A DNA stretch of 20,000 nt from an uncultured virus (IMG/VR IMGVR_UViG_3300035150_000049). Taxonomy: Duplodnaviria; Heunggongvirae; Uroviricota; Caudoviricetes. Each line of letters begins with the position of its first letter. Within the stretch, counting starts at the first letter, position 1. Below, one piece after another: positions 7,539 through 20,000 of the stretch. Both the position numbers and the translations under genes were made by a program. Location of the stretch: IMG/VR virus record IMGVR_UViG_3300035150_000049. One strand, written 5' to 3'. The notes below the pieces were generated by a model. That model was not told the origin of the DNA and searched no databases. It saw nothing but the letters and a program-made list of their open reading frames with translations.

Positions 7539-7865
7539 GTGAGAATCAAGCTCAAGTCGCTACTCCACCAGCGCGCGGAGTTTCGCGGAACCGTCGCGCG
7601 CTTTGGCTCCCGGCGCACGGAGCGTAATCCGAATGCACCGCGCGTGGGCACGATCTGCGTGGAGAACGTCGCGCTCGCTGCCACCGGCGAACAGGTCGCC
7701 GATCACCAATGGTTTGATGCCGAGGATTTTCCCGGCGTTCGTGTGGGTGATGCGGTGACGTTCGAGGCCGAGGTAAGGCATTACGTCAAAGGCGGGCGGT
7801 CGTACAGGGACCGGCGTTATGGAAGGGTAGCGGAGCTTGATTACAAGTTGTTTTTGGGAGGTTAA
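7539..7865 (+). CDS. hypothetical phage protein (OB-fold-like)
   Basis: GTG start after AAGGA; contains ADHQWF...VGDAVTFEAEVRHYVKG...DYKL. Confidence 0.7.
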   Translation: MRIKLKSLLHQRAEFRGTVARFGSRRTERNPNAPRVGTICVENVALAATGEQVADHQWFDAEDFPGVRVGDAVTFEAEVRHYVKGGRSYRDRRYGRVAELDYKLFLGG

Positions 7866-7867
7866 GC

Positions 7868-8728
7868 ATGGGTAAAAAATCAAAAATCAGTTGGACAGAC
7901 GCGACCTGGAACCCCTGGCGCGGTTGCCGCAAGGTCAGCGCCGGGTGTGCAAATTGCTACATGTTTCGGCAGCAGCGGCGCTTCGGCGACGACCCAACCG
8001 TGGTCATGCGCTCGAAAACGACATTTAATGACCCGCTGAAGTGGGCGGAGCCGCAGCGGATTTTTGTTTGTTCGTGGTCGGACTTCTTCATTGAGGACGC
8101 CGATGAATGGCGCGATGAGGCTTGGGCGATTATGCGTGCAGCGCCGCAGCACACGTACATGCTGCTCACAAAGCGCCTAGAGCCAATCGCCGAGCGCCTG
8201 CCGGACGACTGGGGCAATGGATACCCTAACGTCTGGCTAGGTGCGAGCGTTGAAAATCAGCGCGTCGCCGACGAACGAATACCGCTATTGCTGCAACTGC
8301 CGGCGGCGGTGCGGTTCTTGAGTTGTGAGCCGCTTTTGGGTGCGGTGGACCTGAATGAGTACATCAAGTTAACGGCAGATAACAGCACGGACGAACACTT
8401 CGAGCGCGAGCACTGGGGTTACGACGATTGGAGCGGGGGATTCATGTGTCGCGCTACTACTGGCGATGACTCCTGTTACGACCCGCAGGAAGGCATTCAT
8501 TGGGTCATCGCCGGCGGCGAGTCAGGGCCAGGATACCGCCCGATGGGCATGGCATGGGCACGGTCGCTGCGCGATCAGTGTCAAGAAGGCGGTGTGCCGT
8601 TTTTCTTCAAACAGCAGGCAGCATATCGGAGCGAACAAGCACCATACATTGTCGAAGAAGATGGTCGCCATACAGAGTATCAACAAATGCCGGACTTAGT
8701 GATACCGGCAGAGGAGATAAAGCAGTGA
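7868..8728 (+). CDS. DUF5131 / phage Gp37Gp68 family protein (radical-SAM-like)
   Basis: ISWTDATWNPWRGCRKVSAGCANCY, IFVCSWSDFF, LLTKR, NVWLGASVENQ, RFLSCEPLLG, WVIAGGESG, VPFFFKQ. Confidence 0.93.
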   Translation: MGKKSKISWTDATWNPWRGCRKVSAGCANCYMFRQQRRFGDDPTVVMRSKTTFNDPLKWAEPQRIFVCSWSDFFIEDADEWRDEAWAIMRAAPQHTYMLLTKRLEPIAERLPDDWGNGYPNVWLGASVENQRVADERIPLLLQLPAAVRFLSCEPLLGAVDLNEYIKLTADNSTDEHFEREHWGYDDWSGGFMCRATTGDDSCYDPQEGIHWVIAGGESGPGYRPMGMAWARSLRDQCQEGGVPFFFKQQAAYRSEQAPYIVEEDGRHTEYQQMPDLVIPAEEIKQ

Positions 8729-9078
8729 TCGTATACATAGACACCAATAATGTTCACGACGCCGTTGTCGTGCTCGAAAACGTCGTCGATTACTTGGTCG
8801 CAGTCGAAGCGGACCAGGAACCGGTGCCACATTATTTGTATGCAAACAACGGCGATGTACACGAACCGGAAGGCCTCGTGTACGCCGAACAAAAACCGTG
8901 CGGCTGCATCGGCGAGTTCGCTACCGGGCGCGGTCAATACGCGCGCCTTGACGCCGACGAAGAAATCGCCCGGATCATCCGCGAAGGCGGCGCGATTGCC
9001 GTGCTGCCCGTCGAGATGGTACGCGGTGAGTCGTGCCCGATCTGCGCGGGCCAGATGCCGCTGGGTGAGGTGGCATAA
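8725..9078 (+). CDS. hypothetical protein with Cys motifs
   Basis: GTGA overlap and GAGGAG RBS; motifs PCGC and CPIC. Confidence 0.7.
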   Translation: MIVYIDTNNVHDAVVVLENVVDYLVAVEADQEPVPHYLYANNGDVHEPEGLVYAEQKPCGCIGEFATGRGQYARLDADEEIARIIREGGAIAVLPVEMVRGESCPICAGQMPLGEVA

Positions 9079-10109
9079 TGACGGCGCTAACGTTCAACAA
9101 CGACCTGATGAACAAGATCAAGCACGGCCACAAGACTCAGACGCGCCGTCCGGTAAAAGCCGGCGAACGCCTTGCTTGGTATTTCCCGCGTGACGTGAAA
9201 ACTATGCCGTCGCCTGCCGTCTTTACGCCCAGCAATCGCGCCCGCTGGTACATGGGCTGCACCCGTGCTATTAAGCCGGGCCGCACGGCCAAAGGCATCG
9301 GGCGTGTGATGATTACCCTCATTCGGCGCGAACGTGTGATTGACATTACTGAACAAGATGCCATTGCCGAGGGCTTCACCGACCGCCAAGCGCAGTTTCA
9401 TTATGTGGATAACGACAACGTGCTGCATGAAATACGCGGACCGCGCGCCTCGTTCTTCAAGCGCTGGTGTGCGATGTACGGACTCAAGGCGCTTGAATGG
9501 GAGTGCTGGGTGCTTGATTTCATACTGCGCTCGTTTCGCGCCGATCTCGATTTCGCCGACCACGCCGCTGCGATGGACTTCTTTAATGTCGCCTTCCAGA
9601 ACCCACAGGCGCAGTACCTCGTCACCCCGACAGACCCAGAGGCGGCGCGCGCGTGGCTGGCCGAGTACGCCAACATGGTCAATTTCTCCTGGCGCGTTTC
9701 CTCGAAACCCTTCGAAGAACGCCTGGCAGAAGCCGGCCCGATGCGCCTCAACGATGTGACGGACATCGACACTTTACACGGTCGGAACTGTGGCTGGGGG
9801 TTTTGCGATCGTGAGGTAGACGACGAAAACAACGGCTTTCTTTGCGACGCGCCGGTTGCGCCGGGCGAAGATGTGATGGTTTCTTCTGAGACGGGCAAAC
9901 GCTTTTGTCACACATGGCAATGCCCGGTGGCATGGGAAGCGAATGTCGCGGCGATTCGGGAATTTTCCCCAAGCCTTTACGAGAGCGACTTCGCGGACTG
10001 CGATGATGAAGAAACGGCCAACGATTGGATGGTGCTCAGCGCCCGGCCACGCTACGCCTATGTGCCAAACGTAATGGTCGAGGGCGTGGAGGAAGTGTGG
10101 CGACGATGA
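9078..10109 (+). CDS. ASCH-domain protein fused to a Cys-rich C-terminal domain
   Basis: IKHGHKTQTRRPVK and IRRERVIDITEQDAIAEGF are ASCH motifs. The C-terminal half has CGWGFC...GFLC...RFCHTWQCP. Confidence 0.8.
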   Translation: MTALTFNNDLMNKIKHGHKTQTRRPVKAGERLAWYFPRDVKTMPSPAVFTPSNRARWYMGCTRAIKPGRTAKGIGRVMITLIRRERVIDITEQDAIAEGFTDRQAQFHYVDNDNVLHEIRGPRASFFKRWCAMYGLKALEWECWVLDFILRSFRADLDFADHAAAMDFFNVAFQNPQAQYLVTPTDPEAARAWLAEYANMVNFSWRVSSKPFEERLAEAGPMRLNDVTDIDTLHGRNCGWGFCDREVDDENNGFLCDAPVAPGEDVMVSSETGKRFCHTWQCPVAWEANVAAIREFSPSLYESDFADCDDEETANDWMVLSARPRYAYVPNVMVEGVEEVWRR

Positions 10110-10582
10110 AACAGATTTCACTCTTTGAGGACCAACGCCTTGACCGCGCCGGCGCAGTCGAACTCTCGCTTGCCAGTCTACGCGAGTATGGGCAGCGCTA
10201 CCGCCACTGGGCCATCGCGTACAGCGGCGGCAAGGACAGCAGCGCAACTGTGACTTTCGTCGCCTGGGCCATCAAAACCGGGCAGCTTGAGCCACCTGAA
10301 ACCCTCACCGTACTCTACGCCGACACGCGCCAGGAACTACCGCCGCTCCAGCAGGCGGCAATGCACCTGCTTGATGACCTGGCGCGCGACGGCTTCAATA
10401 CGCGCGCTGAAGGTCGAATGGTTGGCGGGTTTCGACAACAACCATGTCGAGCTAATCGCGCAATACGGCGATTACGTAGACCCACAGGGACGCCGGCACA
10501 CGCTCAAGCGGCGCGGCTTGGGTCATTTGTCGAACCCGCGCAGCGTTGCACTTTCGATGTCTTTCGGCGCGATTATGAGTAA
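10106..10582 (+). pseudogene. truncated PAPS-reductase/DndC-like PP-loop gene
   Basis: IAYSGGKDSSAT and LYADTRQELPPL are present. Family-like sequence stops near DGFNTR (~10405), and the downstream RWC/GxR motifs are absent. Confidence 0.7.
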
Positions 10583-10727
10583 GTGCCGCGAGTTGGCGGC
10601 GTTGAGGGATATATGAAAGGAGGCAAGTATGTCGGGGTGTACCTAAAGCCTGATACGTTTAATAAAAAAAATCGAGGTGGATTTGGAGATGATTTTTCTC
10701 TGCCAGCCTCATGTATAAACAAAGCGC

Positions 10728-10765
10728 AGCGCGGCGCACGGAGATGTAGTGCGTCGCGCTTTTTT
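10728..10765 (+). terminator. intrinsic terminator
   Basis: AGCGCGGCGCAC/GTGCGTCGCGCT stem followed by a T tract. Confidence 0.75.
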
Positions 10766-10787
10766 GATTCTTGACGCGCCGGCGCAC

Positions 10788-10817
10788 TTGCGCGAGCGTG
10801 TACAATACTGTACAATA
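10788..10817 (+). promoter_or_regulatory. promoter with tandem TGTACAATA repeats (candidate operator/parC-like site)
   Basis: TTGCGC, 17 bp spacer, TACAAT (10811-10816). TGTACAATA occurs at 10799-10807 and 10809-10817. ATG 10824 lies 7 nt after the -10 and has no RBS. Confidence 0.6.
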
Positions 10818-10823
10818 ATGCAC

Positions 10824-11159
10824 ATGAGTAAAAAGCGTTTACCAACGACCTGGGTTTTCGACGACCTGCACCCCGAACTTTTCAAGCTCGCAGCCGAGCT
10901 TGAGGCAGCGGACTCGCGCACGACCGATAAGAGCGGTCGCATCCGAGAATTGCTCTTGCTTGGTCTCCAGGTAGAGCGCGGGGAGGCGCAGCGCGAGGGG
11001 CGTTTGTGGGCAGACGGTGACATTGATGCATTCATAAACGCCCTGCAATCGCGCGGCCTGGTCGTTTCTGGCGACGCCGGCGAAACAGTGGAGCGCGAGG
11101 AAGCGGTTGATTTATCCGAAATGGTTTTGGATGACGACACACTCGACGATTTTCTATAA
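10824..11159 (+). CDS. ParR-like adaptor (ribbon-helix-helix-like, acidic tail)
   Basis: KSGRIRELLLLGL resembles RHH helix 2, and the C-terminus is DLSEMVLDDDTLDDFL. Directly upstream of the actin-like gene. Confidence 0.6.
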   Translation: MSKKRLPTTWVFDDLHPELFKLAAELEAADSRTTDKSGRIRELLLLGLQVERGEAQREGRLWADGDIDAFINALQSRGLVVSGDAGETVEREEAVDLSEMVLDDDTLDDFL

Positions 11160-11168
11160 GGAGTTGCG

Positions 11169-12170
11169 ATGCCAATCGTAAATATCGGAGTTGACGACGG
11201 CAACGTGCGTCGGAAACTCATTACCAAAAAGCACAAACTAGATACGCCGGTCGGACTGAGCCTTGTCCGGCGCGAAGGCGGTAGAGGAGACCTCGAAGTC
11301 GCTCAAGCTGCCGGCGATGTCATTACGTGGCGCAATGGCTCGCAGTGGACACCCGAACCGTCCGCCAGTGCCTCGACCGAAATGGCGCGCTTCACACACT
11401 GGCCGGAAGCGATGAAAATCAGCTTCCTGTATTCGCTTTCGCGTGTGCCGACCGAGACTAAATCGAAGCGCTTCCGGGTGATGATCGGCGCACCGCTCGA
11501 CGCATTGAACGATGCTGAGGCCGTGCGCAAGGCGGCACGCGAGGAGCTTTGTGGACTGTACACCTTTGAAGTGAACGGCGAACCTCAGAGTATCGAAATC
11601 GCGGATGCTTATATTGCGTCGCAGCCGAAGGCGGCGCTCGTGACGACACCAGGATTTAAGAATAAGCGCGTGTTTTTAGCCGACTGGGGTTTCGTGACCG
11701 GCCATTCAGTCGGTTACGATGAAGCGAGAAAGCAGGACGGGCAATCGGCGTTCATCGACGCTGTGACCGGATGGCGGAGGGTCGGGGCGTACAGAGCCGC
11801 TGACGAACTCTCCAACTACCTGAACGGCGTGTACACGAACTACGGCCTGAGCAAGATCGTTAACATCCATGAGGCCGACCAAATCATTCTCGGTGCGCGG
11901 CGCTTAGAGGTTCCGAACGGCGCGATGACCGAGGCGACCGAGTTCGTTAAGGTACTCAAGGCGCAGAACTTTAACGCCGGCGTCGAGTTCTTCAATGCGC
12001 AAATGGCACACATGGTTCCAGAGATTATTCGGTTCGTCGGCGGAACGACCGTAAGGTACGAACAGCAAATCCGGGCGCGGTGGAAGTCGTTGGTCAGCAT
12101 TCCAGAAGACCCGATCTTTAGTGTAGCGCAGGGGTTGCTGGTGCTCGCCAATAGTTATTGGCGGGATTAA
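11169..12170 (+). CDS. ParM/StbA-family actin-like ATPase
   Basis: IGVDDGNVRRK (phosphate 1), SQPKAA (connect), FLADWGFVT (phosphate 2), FVGGTT (adenosine), PEDPIFSVAQGL; 333 aa. Confidence 0.85.
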   Translation: MPIVNIGVDDGNVRRKLITKKHKLDTPVGLSLVRREGGRGDLEVAQAAGDVITWRNGSQWTPEPSASASTEMARFTHWPEAMKISFLYSLSRVPTETKSKRFRVMIGAPLDALNDAEAVRKAAREELCGLYTFEVNGEPQSIEIADAYIASQPKAALVTTPGFKNKRVFLADWGFVTGHSVGYDEARKQDGQSAFIDAVTGWRRVGAYRAADELSNYLNGVYTNYGLSKIVNIHEADQIILGARRLEVPNGAMTEATEFVKVLKAQNFNAGVEFFNAQMAHMVPEIIRFVGGTTVRYEQQIRARWKSLVSIPEDPIFSVAQGLLVLANSYWRD

Positions 12171-12181
12171 GACAAAAGTTG

Positions 12182-12194
12182 TGATACAATACTG
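12182..12194 (+). promoter_or_regulatory. extended -10 promoter
   Basis: TG-A-TACAAT. TACAATACTG (12185-12194) is identical to 10801-10810. Confidence 0.5.
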
Positions 12195-12251
12195 AGGGAA
12201 ATTAAGCGCAGCCCAAAGGCAGCTGCGCGTAGAGAGGTCATCGACGTTCAA

Positions 12252-13664
12252 ATGACCACACGAAGAATTTTAGCACAAATCATAATCACGTGCTCTACTG
12301 CATGTATCTTAATTTTCTTACTCACCGGCTGCGATGCAATGCAGCCGGCGGATCAGGCTGTTGTCTACGCCACGGTCCCGTCGGGCGCACTTGCGCCGGG
12401 TATCGAGGCCGACAACGCCATGAGTACGGCCCAAGCGCTCGCCTGGGTTGCGACGCAAGATGCTATCGATAAACAGAACACCGTCAGCGCTTCGGATGCG
12501 CTGGCGGCTCAGGCGGCGCAAGCTCAGGTGCAGGCGACGCAAGCCGCCGCCGATGCCACACTGAAAGCCGAGGAGCGCAGCGCTGCCGCCACGCTCCAGG
12601 TTGAGCGGTACAATGCGGATGCTACGCAGCAGGCCGTGAGCGTAAACATGACCGCGACGGCGGGCAGTATCGCGCTACACGGTAGAGAACTGGAAATCAC
12701 ACAGACGGCGATTATCGTCACGCTCGACGGGGCAGAAGCAAATATCAAATCCGCCGAGGCTAGGCAAGCCGAAGTGGATGCCGACCAAGCGGCTAAAGTC
12801 GCTCAGCAGGCAGATATCGACCGCCAAACCGATTACATCTTTAAGTTGGTTGGCGGGATACTGTTAGTCGCCGTAGTTTTTAGCGCGTTCTTGGTTGCGC
12901 TTCTGTATGGCGCTCGCTGGCTCAGCGTGATTATCGCCATCGATGTACGCCGGCGTATGATTCTCGAAGAGCTTGGCCTTCAATACGACAACAACGCCGG
13001 CAAATGGGTGCCGCTGCCGGGGCATGATTGGCCGGCGCTTCCTGCGCCTGAGCCTGAACCAGAACCGGAGCGTGAGATTACCATTGCCGGGCGCGTGTAC
13101 ACGCAAGAGGACCTGGAGGACGCCGAGAAAGCGCGGCAGGAGCAAGCACACCGTACCGCATGGCGCAATGCAGCGATTGCGTTTCTGCGGTGGGGTGAGT
13201 ATGAAGTTGATGACGAACCGATAGGGTACTCGCGCGCCCGCATGACCGCTCACGCCGGCGTAACCGATCCGACCTGGCGCACCATGACGAAATGGCTCGC
13301 CGAGATGGGATTCATGTATCAACCGCGAACTGGCGCGGCGTACACGTTGACACTGAATGACGCAGGGGAACACATGACCGTTTCGCAAATTATCCAGAGT
13401 CCAAAGTGGGCGACTTCTTACGACTATCCGAAGGGTGAAATCATGTCCATCGAGCCGCCGAAAACGCAAAAATCTCTAGACCCAACCCAACCCGCGCACC
13501 CGGTTTCAACCGGGGGAGACCGGGTTCAACCCGCCAACCCGCCCGAAAACGGCGCTTTTGTCGTCGGGACTGACGAAAATGGCAGGCGAACAGTGCGACG
13601 TTGGGGCGGCATGGGGCCGCCGGGTAGCTACGACGCGCAGATAGACGAACTCTGCACAGAGTAA
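12252..13664 (+). CDS. membrane lipoprotein: Ala/Thr/Gln-rich helical region, TM helix, C-terminal wHTH-like domain
   Basis: Lipobox FLLTG-C; ATQAA/ATQQA/TATA-rich stalk; hydrophobic LVGGILLVAVVFSAFLVALLYG; PEPEPEP linker; SRARMTAHAGVTDPTWRTMTKWLAEMGFM. Confidence 0.7.
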   Translation: MTTRRILAQIIITCSTACILIFLLTGCDAMQPADQAVVYATVPSGALAPGIEADNAMSTAQALAWVATQDAIDKQNTVSASDALAAQAAQAQVQATQAAADATLKAEERSAAATLQVERYNADATQQAVSVNMTATAGSIALHGRELEITQTAIIVTLDGAEANIKSAEARQAEVDADQAAKVAQQADIDRQTDYIFKLVGGILLVAVVFSAFLVALLYGARWLSVIIAIDVRRRMILEELGLQYDNNAGKWVPLPGHDWPALPAPEPEPEPEREITIAGRVYTQEDLEDAEKARQEQAHRTAWRNAAIAFLRWGEYEVDDEPIGYSRARMTAHAGVTDPTWRTMTKWLAEMGFMYQPRTGAAYTLTLNDAGEHMTVSQIIQSPKWATSYDYPKGEIMSIEPPKTQKSLDPTQPAHPVSTGGDRVQPANPPENGAFVVGTDENGRRTVRRWGGMGPPGSYDAQIDELCTE

Positions 13665-13669
13665 AAAGG

Positions 13670-13701
13670 GCCGCGCTCGAAAGGGCGCGGTTTTCGTTTT
13701 T
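13670..13701 (+). terminator. intrinsic terminator
   Basis: GCCGCGCTC-GAAA-GGGCGCGGT followed by TTTCGTTTTT. Confidence 0.7.
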
Positions 13702-13745
13702 CGGGTTTGCTGACACTTTGCGTATCGTGAAAGCGCTATTTTGTC

Positions 13746-13776
13746 TTTTGCTAAGAAAAGCAAAAAATGGTATAAT
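13746..13776 (+). promoter_or_regulatory. sigma70-type promoter with overlapping inverted repeat
   Basis: TTGCTA (13748-13753), 17 bp spacer, TGG-TATAAT (13771-13776). TTTTGCT-N6-AGCAAAA overlaps the -35. Confidence 0.75.
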
Positions 13777-13830
13777 GGAGGCGGTGATAGAAAGCATGGG
13801 CGCAAGCCCCTACCCTACTGAGGTACAGCA

Positions 13831-14094
13831 ATGACGATTGAAGCTAACTATCAAAAAGTGTGCCGCGTGATGTCTGTGGACATCGCGCGCACCGAAGCAA
13901 AATTAAATGCGCTTAGAGTTGATCTTGAAGACGCACAAACGTCGCCGACCTACGCGCATTATCTAGCGTGGTATTTCGATAATGTGATCGAGGACTACCA
14001 TAAAGATGGTTTTTACTATGGCCCGCGCTTATCTTGCGGAAAATTTGAGCGGCGGGGTGCTCCCCCGCCATACGAGCTTGGGGTATATGACTAA
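13831..14094 (+). CDS. hypothetical protein
   Basis: GAGGT RBS; first gene after the promoter. Confidence 0.7.
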   Translation: MTIEANYQKVCRVMSVDIARTEAKLNALRVDLEDAQTSPTYAHYLAWYFDNVIEDYHKDGFYYGPRLSCGKFERRGAPPPYELGVYD

Positions 14095-15094
14095 CCCTCT
14101 CTCCCTCGCCCACGAATACCTCCGTTCCCCCCGCGTGAAGTCTCGCGCCGCCGGCACGCAGAGCCATTACCGCGCGGCCCTGGCGCACTTCTGCGACCCA
14201 GGCGACGCCGATAATCCGCGCGTATGCTTTACTACCTCCCTCCCCCACTACAACGGCGAGCGTATCAATCTGCTCGCCAACTTCTTGATTTTTCTGCGAG
14301 AGCGCGGACTGTCAGCGCTCACAGCCCGCGCCTACGTAGTGGACGTTAGGACTTTTCTTGAATGGTGCGCGCTTAACGATCTCCTCCCCCGCGATTGGCC
14401 GATGGAGAAGATGAGTGAGGCATTCGACGACGTGGTGAGCGATGCAGCGGATTACAACCCCGAAACCAGCCCACCCGAAATCCCTGAAGGCATCGAGCGT
14501 CTACTAACCTATCACAGCGACCTGACGCCGCCGGATGATCTGGGCGAGGATAAGCTGCATACATGGGAGCTTGACCGGCTGCGCGACGCCGCGCTGATCC
14601 GCGTGCTCCACGATAGCGGTGGTCGCATTTCCGAGGTACTAAGCCTGCGTACCGGCGACTTTCCGCCGATGGCCCTGGAGCGTGTCGCGCAGGGCGAATA
14701 CTGGCGCGTGCTCGTCACCGGCAAGAAAAACCACAAGTACCATCTATGGCTTAGAGAGGCGGTGTTTTTCATCGACGAATACATGGAAGCGCGCGGTGCG
14801 TCGTCCGACCACAACGAGCCACTGTTTGCGTGGCACAAGCTAAGTAAGGCCGGCGAATCGCTCAGTCGGCAAATGGCATCATGGGTCACGGTGCGCGCCT
14901 CTCGCGCGCTTGGCCTCGGTGACATCACGCCACACGACTTTAGGCACTGGAAGGCGACGCGGTTGCGCAGCGCTGGACTGAGCCTGGAGGATATCGCGCA
15001 CGTGATCGGGCACATGGACATACAGACGACGAAAGACTATTACGCTCACGTCGATGTGAGCGACCTGGAGGCGCGCTTAAGGCGCGTGGAGTAA
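14087..15094 (+). CDS. tyrosine recombinase (XerC/D-like integrase/resolvase)
   Basis: SGGRISE (R), GKKNH (K), HDFRH (HxxR), IGH (H), TTKDYY (Y), plus an N-terminal SAM-like domain. Start probably at 14087. Confidence 0.93.
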   Translation: MTNPLSLAHEYLRSPRVKSRAAGTQSHYRAALAHFCDPGDADNPRVCFTTSLPHYNGERINLLANFLIFLRERGLSALTARAYVVDVRTFLEWCALNDLLPRDWPMEKMSEAFDDVVSDAADYNPETSPPEIPEGIERLLTYHSDLTPPDDLGEDKLHTWELDRLRDAALIRVLHDSGGRISEVLSLRTGDFPPMALERVAQGEYWRVLVTGKKNHKYHLWLREAVFFIDEYMEARGASSDHNEPLFAWHKLSKAGESLSRQMASWVTVRASRALGLGDITPHDFRHWKATRLRSAGLSLEDIAHVIGHMDIQTTKDYYAHVDVSDLEARLRRVE

Positions 15095-15150
15095 CACACG
15101 AAGGCCGCGCGGGTTGACGCTGCGGCGAAGAAGTTGAAGCGAGGTGAGGA

Positions 15151-15516
15151 ATGACACGATATTACATAAGGCTCGAAGCTGCCGCCGGCGCATTGATGCA
15201 CGCGCGAGCGGCGCTCATGGGCCTGGACCTAGACATCGAATGGCCCTCGGAGCTTGACGACATAGCGGACAAGCTTTACGAAACCATATATAAAGCAGCA
15301 GATGCCGACGAGCGCTATCAAAAATATATTGCTTACGCTAGAGAGTTGGACATGAGAGGTCTTCACGGAATGGTCGATCACACGCGATACAGCGACTATA
15401 AGGCATATATTGAACCGTTACTCGACAGACTTAATCAAGAGTATTCCGACGCCGGACACACTGCACGCGCAATGAAGATTGCCGCCGGCGTTGATGAGAC
15501 AACAGATGAACGCTGA
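15151..15516 (+). CDS. hypothetical protein
   Basis: GAGGTGAGG RBS. Confidence 0.75.
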   Translation: MTRYYIRLEAAAGALMHARAALMGLDLDIEWPSELDDIADKLYETIYKAADADERYQKYIAYARELDMRGLHGMVDHTRYSDYKAYIEPLLDRLNQEYSDAGHTARAMKIAAGVDETTDER

Positions 15517-15907
15517 GCAACGCCAACATTTCCGCCGCTCTGCCGGCGCATACTGCATCAAGATCATTCACGACTACGCCATGAACGCGGCGCAGAACGC
15601 CGAAGTCGCTCGCCGCTACAACTCCCCCGGCGCGCCCGCCTGGGCGCGCATCGCCGCATTCTACGAAGTCCGTGCCGCCGACAAAATCGCGGCGACCGAG
15701 GGTGACACGGAACCAACGCGCGCCATCCTGCACTATTCGGCGGGTTTCTGCGCACTCAAGGCCGGTGATGTTGCGACGGCGACTCGGATGATGGAGCGTG
15801 GCCGTGAGACTGTGAGGCACGGACACCCATCACAGCGGCTTGATGAGCTTGAGTCGGCGCTGGAAGCGGAGCAGATTTTGTATCCTGACGGTTTATTTTT
15901 GAGGTAA
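15506..15907 (+). CDS. hypothetical helical-repeat (TPR-like) protein
   Basis: EPTRAILHYSAGFCALKAGDVATATRMMERG; overlaps the upstream stop. Confidence 0.65.
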   Translation: MNAEQRQHFRRSAGAYCIKIIHDYAMNAAQNAEVARRYNSPGAPAWARIAAFYEVRAADKIAATEGDTEPTRAILHYSAGFCALKAGDVATATRMMERGRETVRHGHPSQRLDELESALEAEQILYPDGLFLR

Positions 15908-15914
15908 ATGAAGA

Positions 15915-16238
15915 ATGAGCAACAACACTCCCCCACTCGCGCGCTTGATCGAGCGCGCCAACGCCGAAATCACAGCGCTGAGCCAGGGCAAGAAGACTTG
16001 GCGCACCTGCATTCCGGCACAGCCGAACGACTCCGACGTGGTGATCGGCGACGCGGTGATTGCACTCAAGGCGCGCGCCGAAGCGCTTGAGACGGCACTA
16101 GCGGCGTTGCTTGAGCGCACGCCATACACCGAATATGATTTTTGTGGATGCGCCTATTGCGGCTGCGATTATGACGCACCGCACGAAGAAGGCTGCGCGT
16201 GGGCACAGGCGCGCAAGTTATTAGAGGTGAAAGAATGA
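15915..16238 (+). CDS. hypothetical protein with C-terminal Cys/His motif
   Basis: CAYCG...HEEGCAW; ATGA overlap downstream. Confidence 0.75.
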   Translation: MSNNTPPLARLIERANAEITALSQGKKTWRTCIPAQPNDSDVVIGDAVIALKARAEALETALAALLERTPYTEYDFCGCAYCGCDYDAPHEEGCAWAQARKLLEVKE

Positions 16239-16579
16239 GCAAAAACCAATACAATCCCGACCGCGTATCACGTCCTTCAGAATCGTTTTGTGAGGCACGA
16301 GACGACTTTGGGGACGATCATTTTATACCAGTTGGCTTTGCTATAAATCGATCCCGACAATATGAAAATTTGATAGAGGCCCGCGTTGAGGAACTGGAAG
16401 CCGAAAATGCCGAACTACGCGCGGCGATAGCGGCGTTCGTAGATGTATTTAAGGTTGAGTCCGGTTTCCACGAAGGTCATTTTCAGCTATCAGTACGGCC
16501 AAATGTTATGACGGGCTTTCGTGGCTCTCGCGGCGAAGCGCTCAAGCGCTTGATTGATCTATCTAAGGTGGAGAAATGA
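16235..16579 (+). CDS. hypothetical protein
   Basis: GAGGTG RBS before ATG 16235 (MSKNQYNPD...); coiled coil RVEELEAENAELRAA. Confidence 0.7.
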   Translation: MSKNQYNPDRVSRPSESFCEARDDFGDDHFIPVGFAINRSRQYENLIEARVEELEAENAELRAAIAAFVDVFKVESGFHEGHFQLSVRPNVMTGFRGSRGEALKRLIDLSKVEK

Positions 16580-16580
16580 A
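16531..16580 (+). repeat. direct repeat A, copy 1 (50 bp)
   Basis: 49/50 identical to 17270-17319. Confidence 0.95.
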
Positions 16581-16620
16581 AATTTATTTCTATGGGGGGA
16601 AGAAAAAGAATGAGCAAAGA
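16575..16620 (+). repeat. direct repeat B, copy 1 (46 bp)
   Basis: 44/46 identical to 17579-17624. Confidence 0.93.
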
Positions 16621-16821
16621 GCATATATAGAAAGATTAGAACGGGCACTGCGCATTGTTGGTAAGCGTACCGAATACCCGACACCGGCACCATTTTTTCG
16701 TGACTATACCGGGCAATGGTGGCAACTGACACCATTCTCTTACGGGCAGTTAACAGGCAACTGGTCTGAAATTCAGCGTGTAGTAAAAGAAGCGCTAGCG
16801 GAATCGCAAAGGAAGAACTAG
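16576..16821 (+). CDS. hypothetical protein
   Basis: GGTGGAG RBS and ATGA overlap. Confidence 0.65.
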   Translation: MKIYFYGGKKKNEQRAYIERLERALRIVGKRTEYPTPAPFFRDYTGQWWQLTPFSYGQLTGNWSEIQRVVKEALAESQRKN

Positions 16822-16822
16822 A

Positions 16823-17179
16823 ATGATTGCACCAAATTACTTTTCAATGAATTATCATCCCGAAATGAACCCTCCCCGTTTTCAAGTATGGAATGCAAAA
16901 TTTGAGATAAACGCGATCGGCTTTGATTCACCTGATAACGAGTCTCGTAACGCGATATCAGTCACGGGATGGGTTGATGTACCCGACACTCAAAAATGGC
17001 ATATTCATATCATCACAGATGAAATACTGCCGTGCGCGCCACAAACAAGTTTATGGTTAAAGGTTCCGATTACGGAAGACAAATCATTGTCGGGCAAATT
17101 TGTAACATTGCGCACTGATATGCAGAATGATAGATATTATATTGATTATATGAGTTTTGGGGAAATTGAAATAGATTAA
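16823..17179 (+). CDS. hypothetical protein (AT-rich)
   Basis: AAGGA RBS; starts 1 nt after the upstream stop. Confidence 0.7.
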   Translation: MIAPNYFSMNYHPEMNPPRFQVWNAKFEINAIGFDSPDNESRNAISVTGWVDVPDTQKWHIHIITDEILPCAPQTSLWLKVPITEDKSLSGKFVTLRTDMQNDRYYIDYMSFGEIEID

Positions 17180-17269
17180 AGTCCCGATTATTCGAATAGG
17201 TGGCGCGGATAGCGTGGGTATAAGTTTCCCGCTACTTGGCGGTGGGTATGATGAAGAAAAAACACGCGA

Positions 17270-17319
17270 CGGCGAAGCGCTCAAGCGCTTGATTGATCTA
17301 TCTAGGGTGGAGAAATGAA
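17270..17319 (+). repeat. direct repeat A, copy 2
   Basis: CGGCGAAGCGCTCAAGCGCTTGATTGATCTATCTAGGGTGGAGAAATGAA. Confidence 0.95.
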
Positions 17320-17617
17320 CGACGAACTAACCGGACGCGAGCCTGCGCTCTCGCAAGACTCGAAATTAAGCGGCATGGAGCCGCGACTTAGTCAGACGCA
17401 AACGCGCGCGGAGTTTTTCTTGTGGCTTCTATACGAGCGCCAGCGCGGACACGAACCAATGGCAATGAGGTTTGACCAAGACAGAACGGTGGCATTTACA
17501 ATTAGTGTTCCGGCAAAATACGAAGTTGTCGCAAGAGAGTATATGGAAGAGAGCGCGAAAATTTTAGAAGCCTCGTTGAATGAAAATTTATTTCTATTGG
17601 GGGGAGAAAAAGAATGA
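17315..17617 (+). CDS. hypothetical protein
   Basis: GGTGGAG RBS; ATGA overlap downstream. Confidence 0.7.
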   Translation: MNDELTGREPALSQDSKLSGMEPRLSQTQTRAEFFLWLLYERQRGHEPMAMRFDQDRTVAFTISVPAKYEVVAREYMEESAKILEASLNENLFLLGGEKE

Positions 17618-17624
17618 GCAAAGA
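17579..17624 (+). repeat. direct repeat B, copy 2
   Basis: AATGAAAATTTATTTCTATTGGGGGGAGAAAAAGAATGAGCAAAGA. Confidence 0.93.
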
Positions 17625-17892
17625 ACTCGTAGCCTGCGGCGGATGTTCCGCTGAGATACCAGAGGAAGAAGCGGAAGTGTGCTGGTATTGTCACAGCTAC
17701 CTATGCTTCTCCTGCTGGCAGAGACTCGGTCACTGCGGCCACCCGGAGGCCGAAACCGAAAATCGCCTTGCACGAGAGGCGCGGGCGCGTGGCGAGCATT
17801 ACGATCCACACGACGCGGATTATCACACGGCGGTATTGCGGCAGCTACACGGAATACCAGATCACGAGCGCCGCCGGCAGAAATATAGTTAG
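17614..17892 (+). CDS. Zn-finger-like protein
   Basis: CGGC...CWYC...CFSC...HCGH. Confidence 0.75.
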   Translation: MSKELVACGGCSAEIPEEEAEVCWYCHSYLCFSCWQRLGHCGHPEAETENRLAREARARGEHYDPHDADYHTAVLRQLHGIPDHERRRQKYS

Positions 17893-17914
17893 CGAGAAAG
17901 CGAATTCCGGATAG

Positions 17915-17948
17915 AAAAAAGCCCCGACTGAATAGTCGGGGCTTTTTT
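17915..17948. terminator. bidirectional intrinsic terminator
   Basis: AAAAAA-GCCCCGACT-GAAT-AGTCGGGGC-TTTTTT between convergent units. Confidence 0.92.
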
Positions 17949-17981
17949 GACCGATTTCTTAAGCGCATTTCGATCAACTAT
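17915..17981 (-). ncRNA. candidate ~70-nt sRNA
   Basis: Has its own promoter (17988-18016), a hairpin TTGATCGA-loop-TCGGTCAA, and ends at the terminator. Confidence 0.55.
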
Positions 17982-17987
17982 ACGAGT

Positions 17988-18016
17988 ATTGTATCTCACT
18001 CAAAGGCGTTAGACAA
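17988..18016 (-). promoter_or_regulatory. sigma70-type promoter P2
   Basis: TTGTCT (18016-18011), 17 bp spacer, TACAAT (17993-17988). Confidence 0.7.
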
Positions 18017-18038
18017 GATCGTCATAGGAAACAATGCC

Positions 18039-18192
18039 ATACCAACGGGCGGGAATTGCACCCGCTCGGCTTATTTTCTTCGTCCGTGCTGTCCACTCCC
18101 AAGCCATCGACACGCGCATCAACCGTAATCAATGCGTCGCTCCCTCTCGTGGTGGCTTCCAGGCGCGTCACTGTCCGCGCTGCCGTTGGTAT
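18039..18192 (-). ncRNA. tRNA-like RNA with ~100-nt domain replacing the anticodon arm
   Basis: 10-bp terminal stem ATACCAACGG/CCGTTGGTAT, CA linker, D-like GCGC-GGACAGTGAC-GCGC, insert, then T-arm GCGGG-TGCAATT-CCCGC stacked directly on the 3' strand. Confidence 0.7.
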
Positions 18193-18221
18193 TGATGCTA
18201 GCTATTCGCATCTGATAATGG

Positions 18222-18250
18222 ATTGTATCACGCTTCATACCAACAGACAA
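18222..18250 (-). promoter_or_regulatory. sigma70-type promoter P1
   Basis: TTGTCT (18250-18245), 17 bp spacer, TG-A-TACAAT (18227-18222). Begins immediately after the upstream stop codon. Confidence 0.75.
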
Positions 18251-18691
18251 CTATTCCAGCATATCGCCCGAATCGTCCGGTACGGATTTTACCAGTCCGG
18301 TCGCCTTCGCCCACGAATACGCGGTCGGCGCGCCCAGGAGCGTTAGCATCAATAGCATCAACTGGTAGAGCCATTCAACCCGCGCGTCCACAATCGCGCC
18401 CGCGTCGAGCAGATTAGACGCAAGTGCCAGCCCCACGAAGCCGAAGGTCCACACACCGACAATCCAGCGCCCCCAGCCGTCCTTGTAAATCCTTGCGAGC
18501 TGTAGCGCCCGCTTCGTGACCTCGGTGGCCGCCGAGACGATCAAGGACAAGCCAAGCGTGCCGAATGCAAGCGAACTTACCCAATCGGGCAAAAGAACGC
18601 CTTCGATCATCGGCTCGTCTTCATCGGCGCGCACGACGCCGGGCAGCGCCAGTAGCGCGAGAACGAACATGAGCACAATTAAGTTTTTCAT
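18251..18691 (-). CDS. holin-like multi-pass membrane protein with N-terminal signal peptide
   Basis: MKNLIVLMFVLALLALPGVVRA-D followed by three hydrophobic segments. IVSAATEVTKR and AYSWAK are holin-like motifs. Confidence 0.6.
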   Translation of the reverse strand: MKNLIVLMFVLALLALPGVVRADEDEPMIEGVLLPDWVSSLAFGTLGLSLIVSAATEVTKRALQLARIYKDGWGRWIVGVWTFGFVGLALASNLLDAGAIVDARVEWLYQLMLLMLTLLGAPTAYSWAKATGLVKSVPDDSGDMLE

Positions 18692-18796
18692 TTAATCATC
18701 TCCATTTTGTCTAAGTGCACGCCATGACAGGTATGCCACGAGTGCAAAAGCGATTGTAAGAATAATCACGCCCAAGCAAAACAACTCAAGCGCCAT
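18692..18796 (-). CDS. 34-aa single-TM protein
   Basis: Not in the ORF track. MALELFCLGVIILTIAFALVAYLSWRALRQNGDD; GGAG RBS; its stop abuts the next ATG. Confidence 0.7.
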   Translation of the reverse strand: MALELFCLGVIILTIAFALVAYLSWRALRQNGDD

Positions 18797-19397
18797 GATA
18801 GACTCCCAGAAAAAGCAAAAACAACATCACAATACTTATACCATAAATCATAAATAAAAGTATAATAACCGGCGCAAACTTACGTAAATCTCTAACAAGC
18901 GACACAAGCCCCATCCGCGAATCGCCATTTCCGAACAGTACGACTCCGTGATGTTTTACATCATTCTCAATGCGTTCAACTGTTTTTACAACCGGCATCA
19001 ATTCAGACACATCGGCGCGAAGGCCAAAAAGTGCAGTATTTTGGTATTGCTGGTGAATGTCATCGGTTGGCGGGGGCGGCGCGTTAGGGTTGTTTCGCAT
19101 GTGTTCAAATTGAATTGCATAAGCTAGATTATCGATTTGTTGTTGTTGGTCTACGCCTACGTCGTCTTTTAATCGCCACAAAAACGCAACCGCGGCGGGC
19201 TTTCCCGGCTCAACTTCACCATAATTATTAAGCGCTGTCCACACACGTGCGGCGAACCCCCCGGATGTCCCGCTAAAATCGATTTGCCGCGCAACAACAG
19301 AGCAGCATGATTCTAGAATAACCCGGCGCTGTTCTTCATTTTCTAGATTCCTGGTAGCTATTTCTATAAATTCAGCGGCAAGTGATTGATCCATCAC
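18786..19397 (-). CDS. EAD8-like effector-associated domain fused to coiled coil and C-terminal TM helix
   Basis: QRRVILE...QIDFSGTSGGFAARVWTALNNYGEVEPGKPAAVAFL...VGVDQQQQIDNL, then a PPPP linker, LFGNGDSRMGL and a hydrophobic C-terminus. Confidence 0.65.
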   Translation of the reverse strand: MMDQSLAAEFIEIATRNLENEEQRRVILESCCSVVARQIDFSGTSGGFAARVWTALNNYGEVEPGKPAAVAFLWRLKDDVGVDQQQQIDNLAYAIQFEHMRNNPNAPPPPTDDIHQQYQNTALFGLRADVSELMPVVKTVERIENDVKHHGVVLFGNGDSRMGLVSLVRDLRKFAPVIILLFMIYGISIVMLFLLFLGVYHGA

Positions 19398-19768
19398 GGA
19401 TATTTGTCTTTTATTTTTTTCACTTTATCTTTTACTTTTTTTGCTTTTTCTTTTGTGTCCGCCGACAATTCGCCATTCAAATCCTCAACGATGGCGTCGA
19501 GCGTATCGGCTAATTCATAGAGATTGGTACCGTCCCCCTCGACGAACGCCAGCGCGCGCAGTGCGTCTTTATCGAGCGTAAGCGTCGGGTCAATGTCACC
19601 AGGGATAAGCACGCCGGTTTCTATGTCGAAGCTCTCCTTACGCGGCAATGCGCCAAGCCAATACTTTACTTCAAAAAACGCTTCTTTATATGCGCCGTCT
19701 GGCGGCTTTACATTTTCTATTTGAAAGACTCTGTTATCCAGCTTTCTAATAATTAAATAGTAAGGCAT
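19394..19768 (-). CDS. hypothetical protein downstream of tail fibre
   Basis: MPYYLIIRKLDNRVF starts 2 nt after the upstream stop; ATGA overlap downstream. Confidence 0.7.
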   Translation of the reverse strand: MPYYLIIRKLDNRVFQIENVKPPDGAYKEAFFEVKYWLGALPRKESFDIETGVLIPGDIDPTLTLDKDALRALAFVEGDGTNLYELADTLDAIVEDLNGELSADTKEKAKKVKDKVKKIKDKYP

Positions 19769-19770
19769 AA

Positions 19771-20000
19771 TTATGTCCATGTAATCATATTAAGTGTTGA
19801 TCCCGGCGCATTAGATACTGCTGGGCTGTAATTAGTGGTATTGTTATCGTTTCTTCCTGATGTATTGGATGCTTGAATATATGCAAAATTATCTGCTAAG
19901 TATCCAGTTGTGCAGCTACGAGATGTTGCGGATACAGCCTGAATAATTCCAGTTAATGAATTATATCCGGTTGTGCAAGCAAGTGAAAATGTGTTTTGTG
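19771..20000 (-). CDS. C-terminus of probable tail fibre/spike (beta-helix-like), partial
   Basis: Manual translation ...ACTTGYNSLTGIIQAVSATSRSCTTGYLADNFAYIQASNTSG...NYSPAVS...MITWT*. Repeated CTTGY...IQA unit; Ser/Thr/Asn-rich. Confidence 0.55.
   Translation of the reverse strand, partial: QNTFSLACTTGYNSLTGIIQAVSATSRSCTTGYLADNFAYIQASNTSGRNDNNTTNYSPAVSNAPGSTLNMITWT

Follow-up and report, generated by a model that had tools for sequence, protein, structure and literature searches.

A late gene of a temperate tailed phage joins an EAD8 adaptor domain to a predicted tail-anchored membrane module

Main finding

A late gene of an uncultured temperate tailed phage encodes a protein in which an EAD8 domain is joined, through a Pro-rich linker and a long helix, to a C-terminal membrane anchor. 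The gene was analysed in a stretch of 20,000 nucleotides, referred to here as the window, and it is a real gene of the phage that carries it. Terminase, DnaB, integrase, a ParM-like protein, and Dit-like and Gp37-like tail genes mark the replicon as that of a tailed temperate phage, the host of which is probably a filamentous member of the Chloroflexota. The main reading, to which a probability of roughly 0.4 is given, is that the phage EAD8 protein interferes with the EAD8 wiring of its host by titrating effectors or sensors. Knowledge of EADs comes solely from computational studies of bacterial conflict systems, and homotypic coupling, the role proposed for them, has rarely been tested directly; an enzyme-free EAD8 encoded by a phage is a natural probe of that coupling. 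No phage-encoded EAD was found in the literature searched, and such domains go unmentioned in the available parts of Kaur, Burroughs, Iyer, and Aravind 2020 and 2021.

Gene, product, and coding constraint

An ORF at 18786..19397 had been reported by an earlier reading made from the letters of the DNA alone (the sequence-only reading), and it is present on the minus strand in the ORF list and its translation. A GTG at 19397 is an alternative start that would give 203 aa; the likely start codon, an ATG at 19394, forms the overlap TGATG with the stop codon of the upstream gene. The database copy of the protein, on a contig of 67,311 bp, is 202 aa long. The gene and the parts of its product are as follows.

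18786..19394, minus strand: EAD8-linker-helix-GNG-TM gene, 202 aa from the ATG at 19394
19092-19388, minus strand: folded head, about residues 4-102
19122..19346, minus strand: Pfam EAD8 match (PF19961), residues 18-92
19059..19091, minus strand: Pro-rich linker NPNAPPPPTDD, start of the constant module
18933..19058, minus strand: long helix predicted to be cytoplasmic, residues 114-155 (AlphaFold2)
18909..18932, minus strand: conserved kink FGNGDSRMG with the GNGxxRxG motif, a turn at residues 156-163 in the model
18789..18908, minus strand: amphipathic stretch and single C-terminal TM helix (predicted tail anchor), helix 164-196

Versions of the protein on the viral contigs G001 and L008 are 80% and 42% identical, respectively, and a word-index protein search returned only its own copy and that of G001. 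In the comparison of the window with G001, dN/dS of the EAD8 head was 0.17 and the rest of the gene had 0 non-synonymous versus 13 synonymous changes, a pattern that indicates purifying selection on the gene.

Domain identification and fold of the head

The resemblance of the N-terminal region to EAD8, originally noticed by eye, was borne out by the Pfam search that had been proposed for it: PF19961 was matched above its curated cut-off (E 4e-12; 47.1 bits, cut-off 27) over profile positions 17-93 of 96. EAD8 was the sole family, since no other Pfam family was matched by the protein at E<=10, and a PHROGs search gave no family for the 202-aa protein. The G001 orthologue likewise scored above the cut-off (49.0 bits). 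The motifs picked out by eye, namely IDFSG, YGEVEPGKPA, VGVDQQQQIDNL, the PPPP linker, and GNGDSRMGL, are all present in the translation. Judged by its profile match, the head is a genuine EAD8 domain, and it has the form expected of the family, being a small, non-enzymatic, helical domain (with one short hairpin) at the N-terminus; supplementary file 3 of Kaur 2021 counts 26 architectures with EAD8 at the N-terminus, 3 with it in the middle, and 6 with it at the C-terminus.

The AlphaFold2 model of the full-length protein had a mean pLDDT of 92, and that of the head alone a pLDDT of 95.9. The modelled head consists of helices at residues 4-17, 21-31, 33-36, 45-59, 68-77, and 82-102, with a short beta-hairpin at residues 61-67 between them. 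A structural search of the head against 48,161 chains was performed with VIA-align, in which the top-ranked rows spanning the whole head were PYD and CARD domains with middling Z scores of 6.3-7.1; the best match was the AIM2 PYD (Z 7.1, rmsd 3.8, 90 residues aligned), and the rows also list the bacterial death-like domain 8ss1 and the viral FLIP MC159. None of the 48,161 chains reached Z>=8, and Foldseek searches of the PDB with the full model and with the isolated head stayed empty at E<=0.001 (best E 1.7). EAD8 has been linked to bDLD1 by HHpred with p 3.8e-6 (Kaur et al. 2021, supplementary file 1).

Membrane module and its neighbours

The remainder of the architecture that had been described (Pro linker, coiled coil, GNG, and TM helix) can be followed in the translation, the AlphaFold2 model, and the hydrophobicity scan. 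The linker is non-helical in the model (residues 103-113), and its PPTDD motif is common to relatives that have no head or another head (P0075, P0077, and P0084). The long helix is probably a coiled coil; in VIA-align, residues 111-203 aligned to single long coiled-coil helices alone. Within the kink, G56, N57, G58, R61, and G63 are invariant in a four-row alignment of the constant module, the numbering being that of the alignment. A Kyte-Doolittle scan found one hydrophobic segment, at residues 170-202 with a peak of 2.99; R/K residues precede the TM helix, and a tail of 4 residues lies outside. A single C-terminal helix is thus predicted to anchor the product by its tail in the cytoplasmic membrane, with the long helix and the Pro-rich linker projecting into the cytoplasm and carrying EAD8 at the tip.

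The gene belongs to a cassette of three translationally coupled membrane-protein genes that closes a siphovirus-type tail operon. Its neighbours are the following.

18251..18691, minus strand: gene of a 146-aa membrane protein, the last gene of the operon
18692..18796, minus strand: gene of a 34-aa single-TM peptide, sharing 11 nt with the 3' end of the EAD8 gene
19394..19780, minus strand: 128-aa upstream gene, its stop overlapping the EAD8 gene start, located after the tail-fibre-like ORF
19771..19998, minus strand: 3' portion of a large tail-fibre-like gene that runs past the window end

The same cassette, in the same gene order, was found on three further viral contigs (G001, L008, and L018), and at least four phage lineages have it as the end of the tail operon. 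The 34-aa peptide is kept in G001 at 32/34 residues; its equivalent place is taken in L008 by a 41-aa TM peptide and in L018 by a short hydrophobic ORF. Directly 3' of its TAA lies the ATG of the 146-aa gene, the product of which has a signal-peptide-like N-terminus followed by 2-3 TM segments and is 86% identical in G001. Eight homologues of the 146-aa protein were found, one of which (68% identical) is named from an Anaerolineae MAG; it occurred in 0/401 Anaerolineae genomes searched, and it shows weak colinear similarity (E 0.005) to a 227-aa protein that occupies the corresponding position in L018. The product of the 128-aa gene is 41% identical in G001, and the gene is also present in G405 and absent from G406. 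Neither the 128-aa nor the 146-aa protein has a Pfam or PHROG family. The tail-fibre-like end is 50% identical to the C-terminus of a 729-aa G001 protein, and syntenic L008 genes match SPP1_Dit (weakly) and Sipho_Gp37.

Small TM proteins tightly coupled as the last late-operon genes, as found here, are a trait of lysis cassettes, and the lysis cassettes of temperate siphoviruses typically sit at the tail-operon end. The sequence-only reading had called the neighbours holin-like and the region a lysis region. The neighbours are indeed membrane proteins, but no holin family in Pfam or PHROGs was matched by the 34-aa, 146-aa, or 202-aa proteins, and no endolysin or lysin family was found among the 29 window ORFs and 5 cassette ORFs searched against the same databases. 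The complete 61-kb G001 also gave no lysin family, either in 14 ORFs searched with Pfam and PHROGs or in a wider set of ORFs (62 against PHROGs, 60 against Pfam); a lysin of a novel kind may still be present. The XhlA profile (PF10779) was not matched by the window protein at E<=10, and the XhlA model, applied at E<=1 to six-frame translations of three phage records (G001, G405, and G406), found nothing, while the controls matched. Two candidate assignments by Atlas, XhlA/DUF1515 for the C-terminal half (0.83) and Phage_holin_5_2 for the 146-aa protein (0.79), were rejected as below the reliable range. The label 'lysis region' rests on position and topology and is unproven.

Exchange of the head among related phages

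Whether orthologues occur that lack EAD8 had been suggested as a check, and they do: the L018 cassette has a wHTH-like domain in place of the EAD8 head, and other relatives have no head or another one. The membrane module stays constant and its head can be exchanged, with EAD8 in some versions, a wHTH-like domain in another, and nothing folded in others. Viral contigs yielded the constant module (the viral scans were pattern-seeded and returned only four contexts), and it was absent from 400/401 Anaerolineae genomes searched, the one match being marginal. Together with its membrane partner, the PPTDD-helix-GNG-TM module makes up an undescribed phage gene pair.

Comparison of the window with G001 located the following boundary within the gene.

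19140..19208, minus strand: recombination joint, a boundary between divergent and conserved sequence near the C-terminal end of EAD8

The blastn alignment of the two sequences extends over 18038-19208 at 91% and ends at 19208. Identity between the proteins is 100% from about residue 87 onward and about 53% up to that point, and dS is 0.18 in the conserved part versus about 2.1 in the divergent part. The EAD8 head, the 128-aa gene, and the tail-fibre end are all just 41-53% identical between the window and G001. Positive selection as the cause of the head divergence was rejected and recombination was preferred, because dS is saturated in the head and its dN/dS is low (0.17). A contig from run X3 also has a loose end at 19208; it is G001-like and hence not independent. 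Contigs from run X2 cover the window in parts only.

In the tree, the EAD8 heads from six close relatives group as a single clade (SH-aLRT 99), and for a group of ten rows the support is 93. The proposal that the EAD was captured by a phage fits this six-head clade, the temperate tailed-phage replicon, and the occurrence of the module with other heads. Ten relatives looked up by cluster were all singletons on short contigs. The related phage G405 carries a soluble 105-aa EAD8-like ORF that scores below threshold (23.4 bits). The window and the complete G001 have one EAD8 copy each, no second copy being found in either, and no NTPase partner or EAD8-bearing sensor is encoded in the phage. A viral scan with an alignment of P0008-P0011 and P0022 returned no locus, and in a metagenome scan five short loci matched EAD8 alone and no further cassette turned up.

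Cellular EAD8 domains

The library search gave 127 matches, 72 of which were submitted to Pfam; EAD8 was above the cut-off in 69 of these, and many EAD8 matches also bear TIR, caspase, CHAT, trypsin, NACHT, nSTAND1, NB-ARC, iSTAND, or FGE domains. Phage heads score 44-55 bits with the Pfam EAD8 model versus 60-85 for most cellular heads. The nearest cellular EAD8s are in Anaerolineae MAGs at 4/6 loci, and the closest lie in Anaerolineae conflict islands with TIR, NACHT, and FGE domains; one near relative is an EAD8-TIR-NACHT-FGE protein, and one locus combines a pair of EAD8 genes with a DGR reverse transcriptase and with one gene each of the KAP-NTPase-FGE and NACHT types. EAD8 relatives of the phage head were found in just 7/401 Anaerolineae genomes searched, and EAD8 was found in 0/4 genomes with terminase relatives. 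Cellular-looking EAD8 proteins with TM segments also exist (P0008-P0011 and P0022), as does an EAD8-TM-SH3 arrangement (P0013, P0032, and P0042).

In the published model, as given in the available text of PMC7159879 and PMC8195603, EAD8 mainly recruits effectors via homotypic contacts. The sole role proposed for it in the literature is that of a homotypic Death-like adaptor connecting NTPase sensors (STAND, iSTAND, and NACHT) to effectors (TIR, caspase, and trypsin), and EADs are also proposed to multimerise (PMC7159879, in the same portion). In a DGR preprint, EAD8 joins a STAND/CLec sensor to a trypsin-like effector. Phage structural proteins are known to trigger some STAND sensors.

Proposed mechanism and alternatives

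The sequence-only reading had suggested that a phage-captured EAD could sequester host effectors or couple them to lysis, which is plausible. In the proposed interference, the phage head would dock onto EAD8-bearing host proteins, a step suggested by the published role of EAD8 in the homotypic coupling of sensors and effectors. Host EAD8 effectors or sensors would thereby be drawn away from productive sensor-effector assemblies, and the titration would act in the late phase, during structural-protein production. Interference is considered the most likely outcome because the phage copy has no enzyme and is pinned to the membrane. The head moves with the tail-fibre end and recombines close to the edge of the domain, a pattern to be expected of a head that has to fit the EAD8 variant of one host lineage. 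Such domain-precise recombination suggests that adaptor specificity belongs to host range. If it binds and blocks host EAD8s, the protein would parallel, in bacteria, the Death-fold decoys that animal viruses make, and would be a first anti-defence factor whose target is the adaptor wiring instead of a sensor or signal.

A complex prediction of the head (residues 1-105) with the nearest Anaerolineales EAD8 (residues 1-110), used as a stand-in for the host partner, was uninformative (score 0.00). Several points count against interference: the place in the late operon is late for an anti-defence factor, the match to the Death-like fold is middling (Z<8) with an empty Foldseek search, EAD8 relatives are rare among the Anaerolineae genomes (7/401), and the lower Pfam scores of the phage heads may reflect drift to a different partner. 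In addition, the membrane module works with other heads or none, so its core job would be independent of EAD8 and may be lysis.

This last point favours a coupling to lysis, which we regard as possible but unlikely, and in which the cassette would be a holin system whose tail-anchored protein, as holin partner or antiholin, would be brought to host EAD8 assemblies by its EAD8 head, or be recruited by them through it. Activation of NLR-like suicide in the host would then be turned into a phage-timed membrane lesion and release. Several features agree with lysis coupling: the cassette stands at the tail-operon end and faces the integrase module in convergent orientation, its three small membrane-protein genes are translationally coupled, and the constant module carries various heads, which would suit a head that feeds regulatory signals into an unchanging membrane device. 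A precedent is LypABC, a CARD-NLR-like system that, according to the available text of PMC13236601, is needed for lysis by a gene transfer agent. Lysis coupling is opposed by the lack of an endolysin or holin family in the window and in the complete G001, by the empty XhlA model and the sub-reliable Atlas leads, and by the consideration that early lysis on host alarm would forfeit the burst of the phage. If true, it would join the holin clock to NLR-like immunity, a connection so far met solely in LypABC. A more general scheme, judged rather improbable, is that phages of multicellular filamentous bacteria plug a lysis-type cassette into the NLR-like suicide network of the host via Death-like heads, whose occupancy would set effector silencing versus phage-timed lysis, and that the head is swapped with the tail-fibre tip and so tracks the adaptor allele of the host.

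It is doubtful that EAD8 serves self-assembly only, oligomerising the phage's own tail-anchored proteins with no host partner, in which case clustering or spacing of heads could nucleate or delay hole formation. Multimerisation is known or proposed for Death-fold domains and EADs (PMC7159879, in the part available), the top whole-head rows include filament-forming PYD and CARD domains, the long helix after the head is suited to a coiled coil, and the head can be replaced or omitted. Left unexplained, however, would be the capture of a domain otherwise confined to conflict systems (69/72 Pfam-tested matches being EAD8, many of immune type), the co-variation of the head with the host-range end of the tail fibre, and the soluble EAD8-like protein of G405.

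Very unlikely is a defence effector borne by the prophage for the benefit of the host (a moron), by which an EAD8-NTPase sensor of the lysogen would recruit a membrane disrupter and abort superinfection. The phage is temperate, as its integrase indicates, cellular-looking EAD8 proteins with TM segments exist, and the published scheme, in the passages available, wires effectors as EAD8 plus a non-sensor module; against this, the start of the gene overlaps the stop of the preceding late gene, leaving no intergenic space for a promoter separate from the tail genes, the constant module is viral and essentially absent from the 401 Anaerolineae genomes, and the phage encodes no sensor with EAD8. A chance ORF or a decayed remnant without function can be dismissed, being contradicted by the Pfam match, the full-length conservation of the protein in other phages, the purifying selection on the gene, and the confident fold prediction.

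Comparison with known systems

The head is like the EAD8 domains of conflict systems in that it is small, non-catalytic, N-terminal, and above the profile cut-off, and it is homologous to the EAD8 heads of TIR, caspase, NACHT, and FGE proteins; it differs from them in that it is phage-encoded within a late operon and has a tail-anchored coiled-coil/TM module, not an enzyme or NTPase, as its fusion partner. Like XhlA of the Bacillus prophage PBSX, the protein is small, pairs a cytoplasmic helix with a TM segment at the C-terminus, and is encoded just before a holin-type membrane protein at the late-operon end. XhlA, the membrane partner of the holin XhlB, is required together with XhlB and XlyA (PMC5589764, in the portion available) and has no adaptor head, whereas the window protein lacks a sequence match to the XhlA profile and an endolysin gene after it. 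As in LypABC of the Caulobacter GTA (Banks et al. 2026, PMC13236601), Death-like or NLR-type modules may be tied to particle release; LypABC, as the available text describes it, is host-encoded with enzymes and an NTPase, whereas the window phage itself encodes the adaptor domain alone.

Among Death-fold adaptors (CARD, Pyrin, DED, and DD) and bDLDs, the likeness lies in the whole-head structural rows, which are PYD and CARD, and the difference in the low Z scores of the head (just 5.5-7.1), the identity of 4-16%, and the beta-hairpin at residues 61-67. Animal viruses encode decoys that consist of a Death fold only, such as vFLIP (MC159), the poxvirus pyrin-only proteins, and CARD-only proteins. 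By analogy with vFLIP and the pyrin-only decoys, the window protein is a virus-encoded adaptor without an effector that could block homotypic host assemblies; unlike them, it is encoded by a bacteriophage, tethered to the membrane, and part of a membrane cassette.

The EAD8 gene and its predicted product

The gene occupies a single open reading frame (window 18786..19397, minus strand). Codon 1 is GTG (19397) and codon 2 is ATG (19394), the latter overlapping the TGA of the preceding 128-aa gene (TGATG); since the protein-collection copy is 202 aa long, the ATG at 19394 is the likely start. Residues are numbered here according to the 203-aa reading (P0001). The only Pfam family matched at E<=10 was effector-associated domain 8 (EAD8, PF19961; E 4e-12, 47.1 bits against a curated cut-off of 27), with residues 18-92 aligned to profile positions 17-93 of 96, so the domain call made by eye in the sequence-only reading was correct and far above chance. 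A PHROGs search with the protein returned no family.

An AlphaFold2 model was built from a 57-row alignment (mean pLDDT 92), and its head is compact and helical. The segments of the model are as follows.

Segments of the EAD8 protein in the AlphaFold2 model (residues)
4-17, 21-31, 33-36, 45-59, 68-77, 82-102: head helices
61-67: short hairpin
103-113: Pro-rich linker
114-155: single long helix
156-163: turn at the FGNGDSRMG motif
164-196: last helix

A Kyte-Doolittle scan gave a sole hydrophobic segment, at the C-terminus, with Arg and Lys ahead of it and only four residues after it; with this arrangement the protein should, by the positive-inside rule, be tail-anchored and otherwise cytoplasmic.

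Foldseek searches with the whole model and with the head alone (pLDDT 95.9) returned no solved structure at E<=0.001. A second structural search, independent of Foldseek, was performed against 48,161 chains, and Death-fold domains ranked at the top among the rows spanning the whole head.

Death-fold rows in the structural search with the head
AIM2 PYD: Z 7.1, 90 residues aligned, rmsd 3.8
NLRP7 PYD: Z 6.9
A CARD: Z 6.7
Apaf-1/caspase-9 CARD disk: Z 6.7
NLRP3 PYD: Z 6.5
BCL10 CARD: Z 6.3
Also present: bacterial death-like domain, Z 5.9; viral FLIP MC159, Z 5.5

Because none of the 48,161 chains reached Z 8 and such values are common for helical bundles, a Death-like fold of the head is a lead, not proof. 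The ranking agrees with the HHpred link between EAD8 and bDLD1 (p 3.8e-6) given in supplementary file 1 of Kaur et al. 2021.

Relatives of the head and of the membrane module

A full HMMER search against 1.84 billion representatives yielded 127 matches at E<=0.001, of which 72 were run against Pfam. EAD8 was above the cut-off in 69 of the 72, many of them with TIR, caspase, CHAT, trypsin, NACHT, nSTAND1, NB-ARC, iSTAND, Roc-COR, FGE-sulfatase or kinase domains, which are the repertoire of EAD8-coupled conflict systems described in passages of PMC7159879, PMC8195603 and a preprint on DGR-linked systems. The other three (P0075, P0077 and P0084) align to query residues 101-196 only and have in common the PPTDD motif, the helix, an invariant GNG..R.G turn and the TM anchor; at the N-terminus they are dissimilar (a weak wHTH-like domain in P0077, short low-complexity stretches in P0075 and P0084). 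EAD8 is joined to the same kind of tail in the best full-length matches (P0004-P0007, 194-212 aa) and in P0009. Since the tail is kept with other N-termini, the membrane half is, on these alignments, an independent module, and EAD8 one of several possible heads. P0013, P0032, P0042 and P0059 are EAD8 proteins that have a TM segment and, outside the cytoplasm, an SH3_3 or LysM domain; this layout would attach EAD8, on the cytoplasmic side, to a membrane protein that binds the cell wall.

Of 129 candidate EAD8 domains, 123 entered a maximum-likelihood tree; the six left out, the three head-less matches among them, covered fewer than 70 profile positions. The six close membrane-anchored proteins form one clade (SH-aLRT 99) and, together with P0008, P0009, P0010 and P0022, are split off by a branch with support 93; P0011 is placed elsewhere. 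The simplest reading of this tree, which is short on columns and has no proper root, is one old capture of EAD8 by the constant module.

Phage replicon and conserved cassette

The closest record, G001, which is rated complete, is a viral contig of 61,289 bp that carries terminal repeats; its copy of the EAD8 protein is 80% identical. The window encodes a tyrosine integrase, a ParM-like partition protein, DUF5131, a DNA methyltransferase, a PAPS-reductase-like protein and a dCTP deaminase, and further G001 genes encode the small and large terminase subunits, DnaB and a Gp3-like recombination directionality factor; by this gene content the replicon is a phage. Individual features of the window and of G001 are as follows.

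Window 4364-4435: tRNA-Gly (anticodon TCC), in the early region
Window 11169-12170: ParM/actin-like partition protein
Window 14006-15094: tyrosine integrase
G001 L015 and L005:534-14037: sugar-modifying block within the late region (UDP-glucose dehydrogenase, NAD-dependent epimerase, two FkbM methyltransferases, two GT2 glycosyltransferases)
G001 L004:2406-2888, plus strand: Macro-domain protein adjoining the dCTP deaminase
G001 L003:13628-14065, minus strand: pentapeptide-repeat protein

A phage that encodes both the ParM-like protein and the integrase might maintain its prophage as a plasmid, by integration, or in both ways. The sugar block may modify glycans of the virion or the host surface. 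The Macro-domain and pentapeptide-repeat proteins are candidate counter-defence genes (acting on ADP-ribose-derived TIR signals and by DNA mimicry, respectively); TIR is common among EAD8 host proteins.

The EAD8 gene belongs to a conserved cassette in a phage late operon. The order in G001 is a 935-aa, a 729-aa and a 131-aa ORF, the EAD8 protein, a tiny TM peptide and a 146-aa membrane protein, after which come opposite-strand genes including the integrase. A third viral contig (G405) has genes matching SPP1_Dit (weakly) and Sipho_Gp37, then the cassette in the same order (a 145-aa and a 97-aa ORF, the EAD8 protein P0007, a 41-aa TM peptide and a 140-aa membrane protein). At the position of the EAD8 protein, a fourth contig (G406) has the wHTH-headed P0077, followed by a short hydrophobic ORF and a 227-aa protein that is weakly colinear with the 146-aa protein (E 0.005) and has a signal peptide, TM segments and an SH3_3 match below threshold. 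The junctions of the four window genes are TGATG, an 11-nt overlap and TAAATG; because the genes abut or overlap in this way, they are read as one translationally coupled unit closing the tail operon.

Recombination and base composition

Compared with G001, the EAD8 protein is 100% identical from about residue 87 to its end and about 53% identical over the first 86 or so residues. The gene is under purifying selection, with 13 synonymous and no non-synonymous differences in the conserved part (dS 0.18) and a dN/dS of 0.17 in the head, where dS is saturated (~2.1). Positive selection on the head was rejected on these head values, and the change near residue 87 is best described as a recombination joint. 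At the nucleotide level G001 aligns over 18038-19208, the match ending within the head. On the upstream side of the joint, identity to G001 is 41% for the 128-aa protein and 50% for the tail-fibre C-terminus; on the downstream side it is 86% for the 146-aa protein. As judged from these identities (41-50% upstream, 86-100% downstream), the head shares a divergent segment with the distal tail-fibre end, and the membrane module lies in the conserved one.

Two pairs of direct repeats are present in the window.

16531-16580 and 17270-17319: 50 nt, 98%
16575-16620 and 17579-17624: 46 nt, 96%

Both coincide exactly with gene boundaries among the small plus-strand genes that separate the integrase from the cassette, which explains the C-terminal ...ALKRLIDLS(K/R)VEK peptide shared by two different ORFs; they may be shuffling-promoting junctions or repeated regulatory sites. 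The G+C content is 0.44-0.52 over 16001-20000, against 0.52-0.64 over 1001-16000, and the cassette and tail-fibre end are the most AT-rich parts of the window.

Host

Four of six genome loci of the EAD8 family are in Anaerolineae-class MAGs, one is in Calditrichaceae and one in Scytonema; one Anaerolineae EAD8 protein (1055 aa) has the architecture EAD8-TIR-NACHT-FGE. The nearest cellular head, 41% identical to the phage head, belongs to a 189-aa protein in an Anaerolineales conflict island.

L058 (G005 contig C100) 1451-11857: NACHT (878 aa), DGR reverse transcriptase and bAvd, KAP-NTPase-FGE (893 aa), 189-aa EAD8 protein, CBM9 protein, 444-aa EAD8 protein

The island resembles the DGR-linked systems described in passages of the DGR preprint. 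EAD8 was found in all five loci genomes (1-9 matches each) as against none of 14 control genomes. In searches confined to 401 Anaerolineae genomes, relatives of the large terminase subunit were found in 10 (best identities 43% and 42%) and of the head in 7, the constant module gave one marginal match and the 146-aa protein gave none; a 68% identical homologue of the latter is present in a MAG named as Anaerolineae. On the strength of the locus MAGs, the nearest head, the terminase relatives and this homologue, a Chloroflexota (Anaerolineae) host is likely, not proven.

Proposed role

In the model set out in passages of PMC7159879, EAD8 is a homotypic coupler only, bringing effectors to NTPase cores, and for this reason an enzyme-free, membrane-pinned phage EAD8 head should dock onto host EAD8 proteins. 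It would thereby interfere, acting as a decoy and also keeping its targets at the membrane; this is the favoured, if tentative, reading, to which a probability of about 0.4 is given. Late expression is compatible with such a decoy, since phage structural proteins are the signal to which some bacterial STAND sensors respond (PMC13581612).

The main rival, considered unlikely, is that the cassette is a lysis system which the head couples to host immune assemblies; LypABC is a precedent for such co-option in the case of a gene transfer agent (PMC13236601). The label "lysis region" in the sequence-only reading is reasonable in view of the position and the three small membrane proteins, and a class I holin topology (N-out, C-in) is conceivable for the 146-aa protein, as judged from a hydrophobicity scan, not a dedicated predictor. 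The label is not demonstrated, however: Pfam and PHROGs gave no holin or endolysin family in the cassette proteins, 29 other window ORFs or the G001 ORFs scanned (14 with both libraries, 62 with PHROGs and 60 with Pfam), the XhlA profile had no match in G001, G405 or G406, and Atlas leads toward holin-type families were weak. As G001 (L003-L006, L015, L016) is rated complete and has no such family among its scanned ORFs, this phage group may have a lysin of a type not yet described. G405 also encodes, on the other strand, a soluble 105-aa EAD8-like ORF (L057:1151-1468, minus strand; 23.4 bits, cut-off 27), which fits a decoy better than a pure lysis role; no second EAD8-like copy was found in the window or G001. 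That the head serves self-assembly only is improbable, and that the protein is a prophage-borne defence effector is more improbable still.

A literature search on EAD8 and effector-associated domains with phage found no paper describing a phage-encoded EAD. What appears to be new is a known adaptor domain in a phage carrier, its architecture with a tail-anchored membrane module, and its genomic setting. Animal viruses have decoys that consist of nothing but a Death-fold domain, and the putative phage EAD8 decoy is likened to them in its mode of working.
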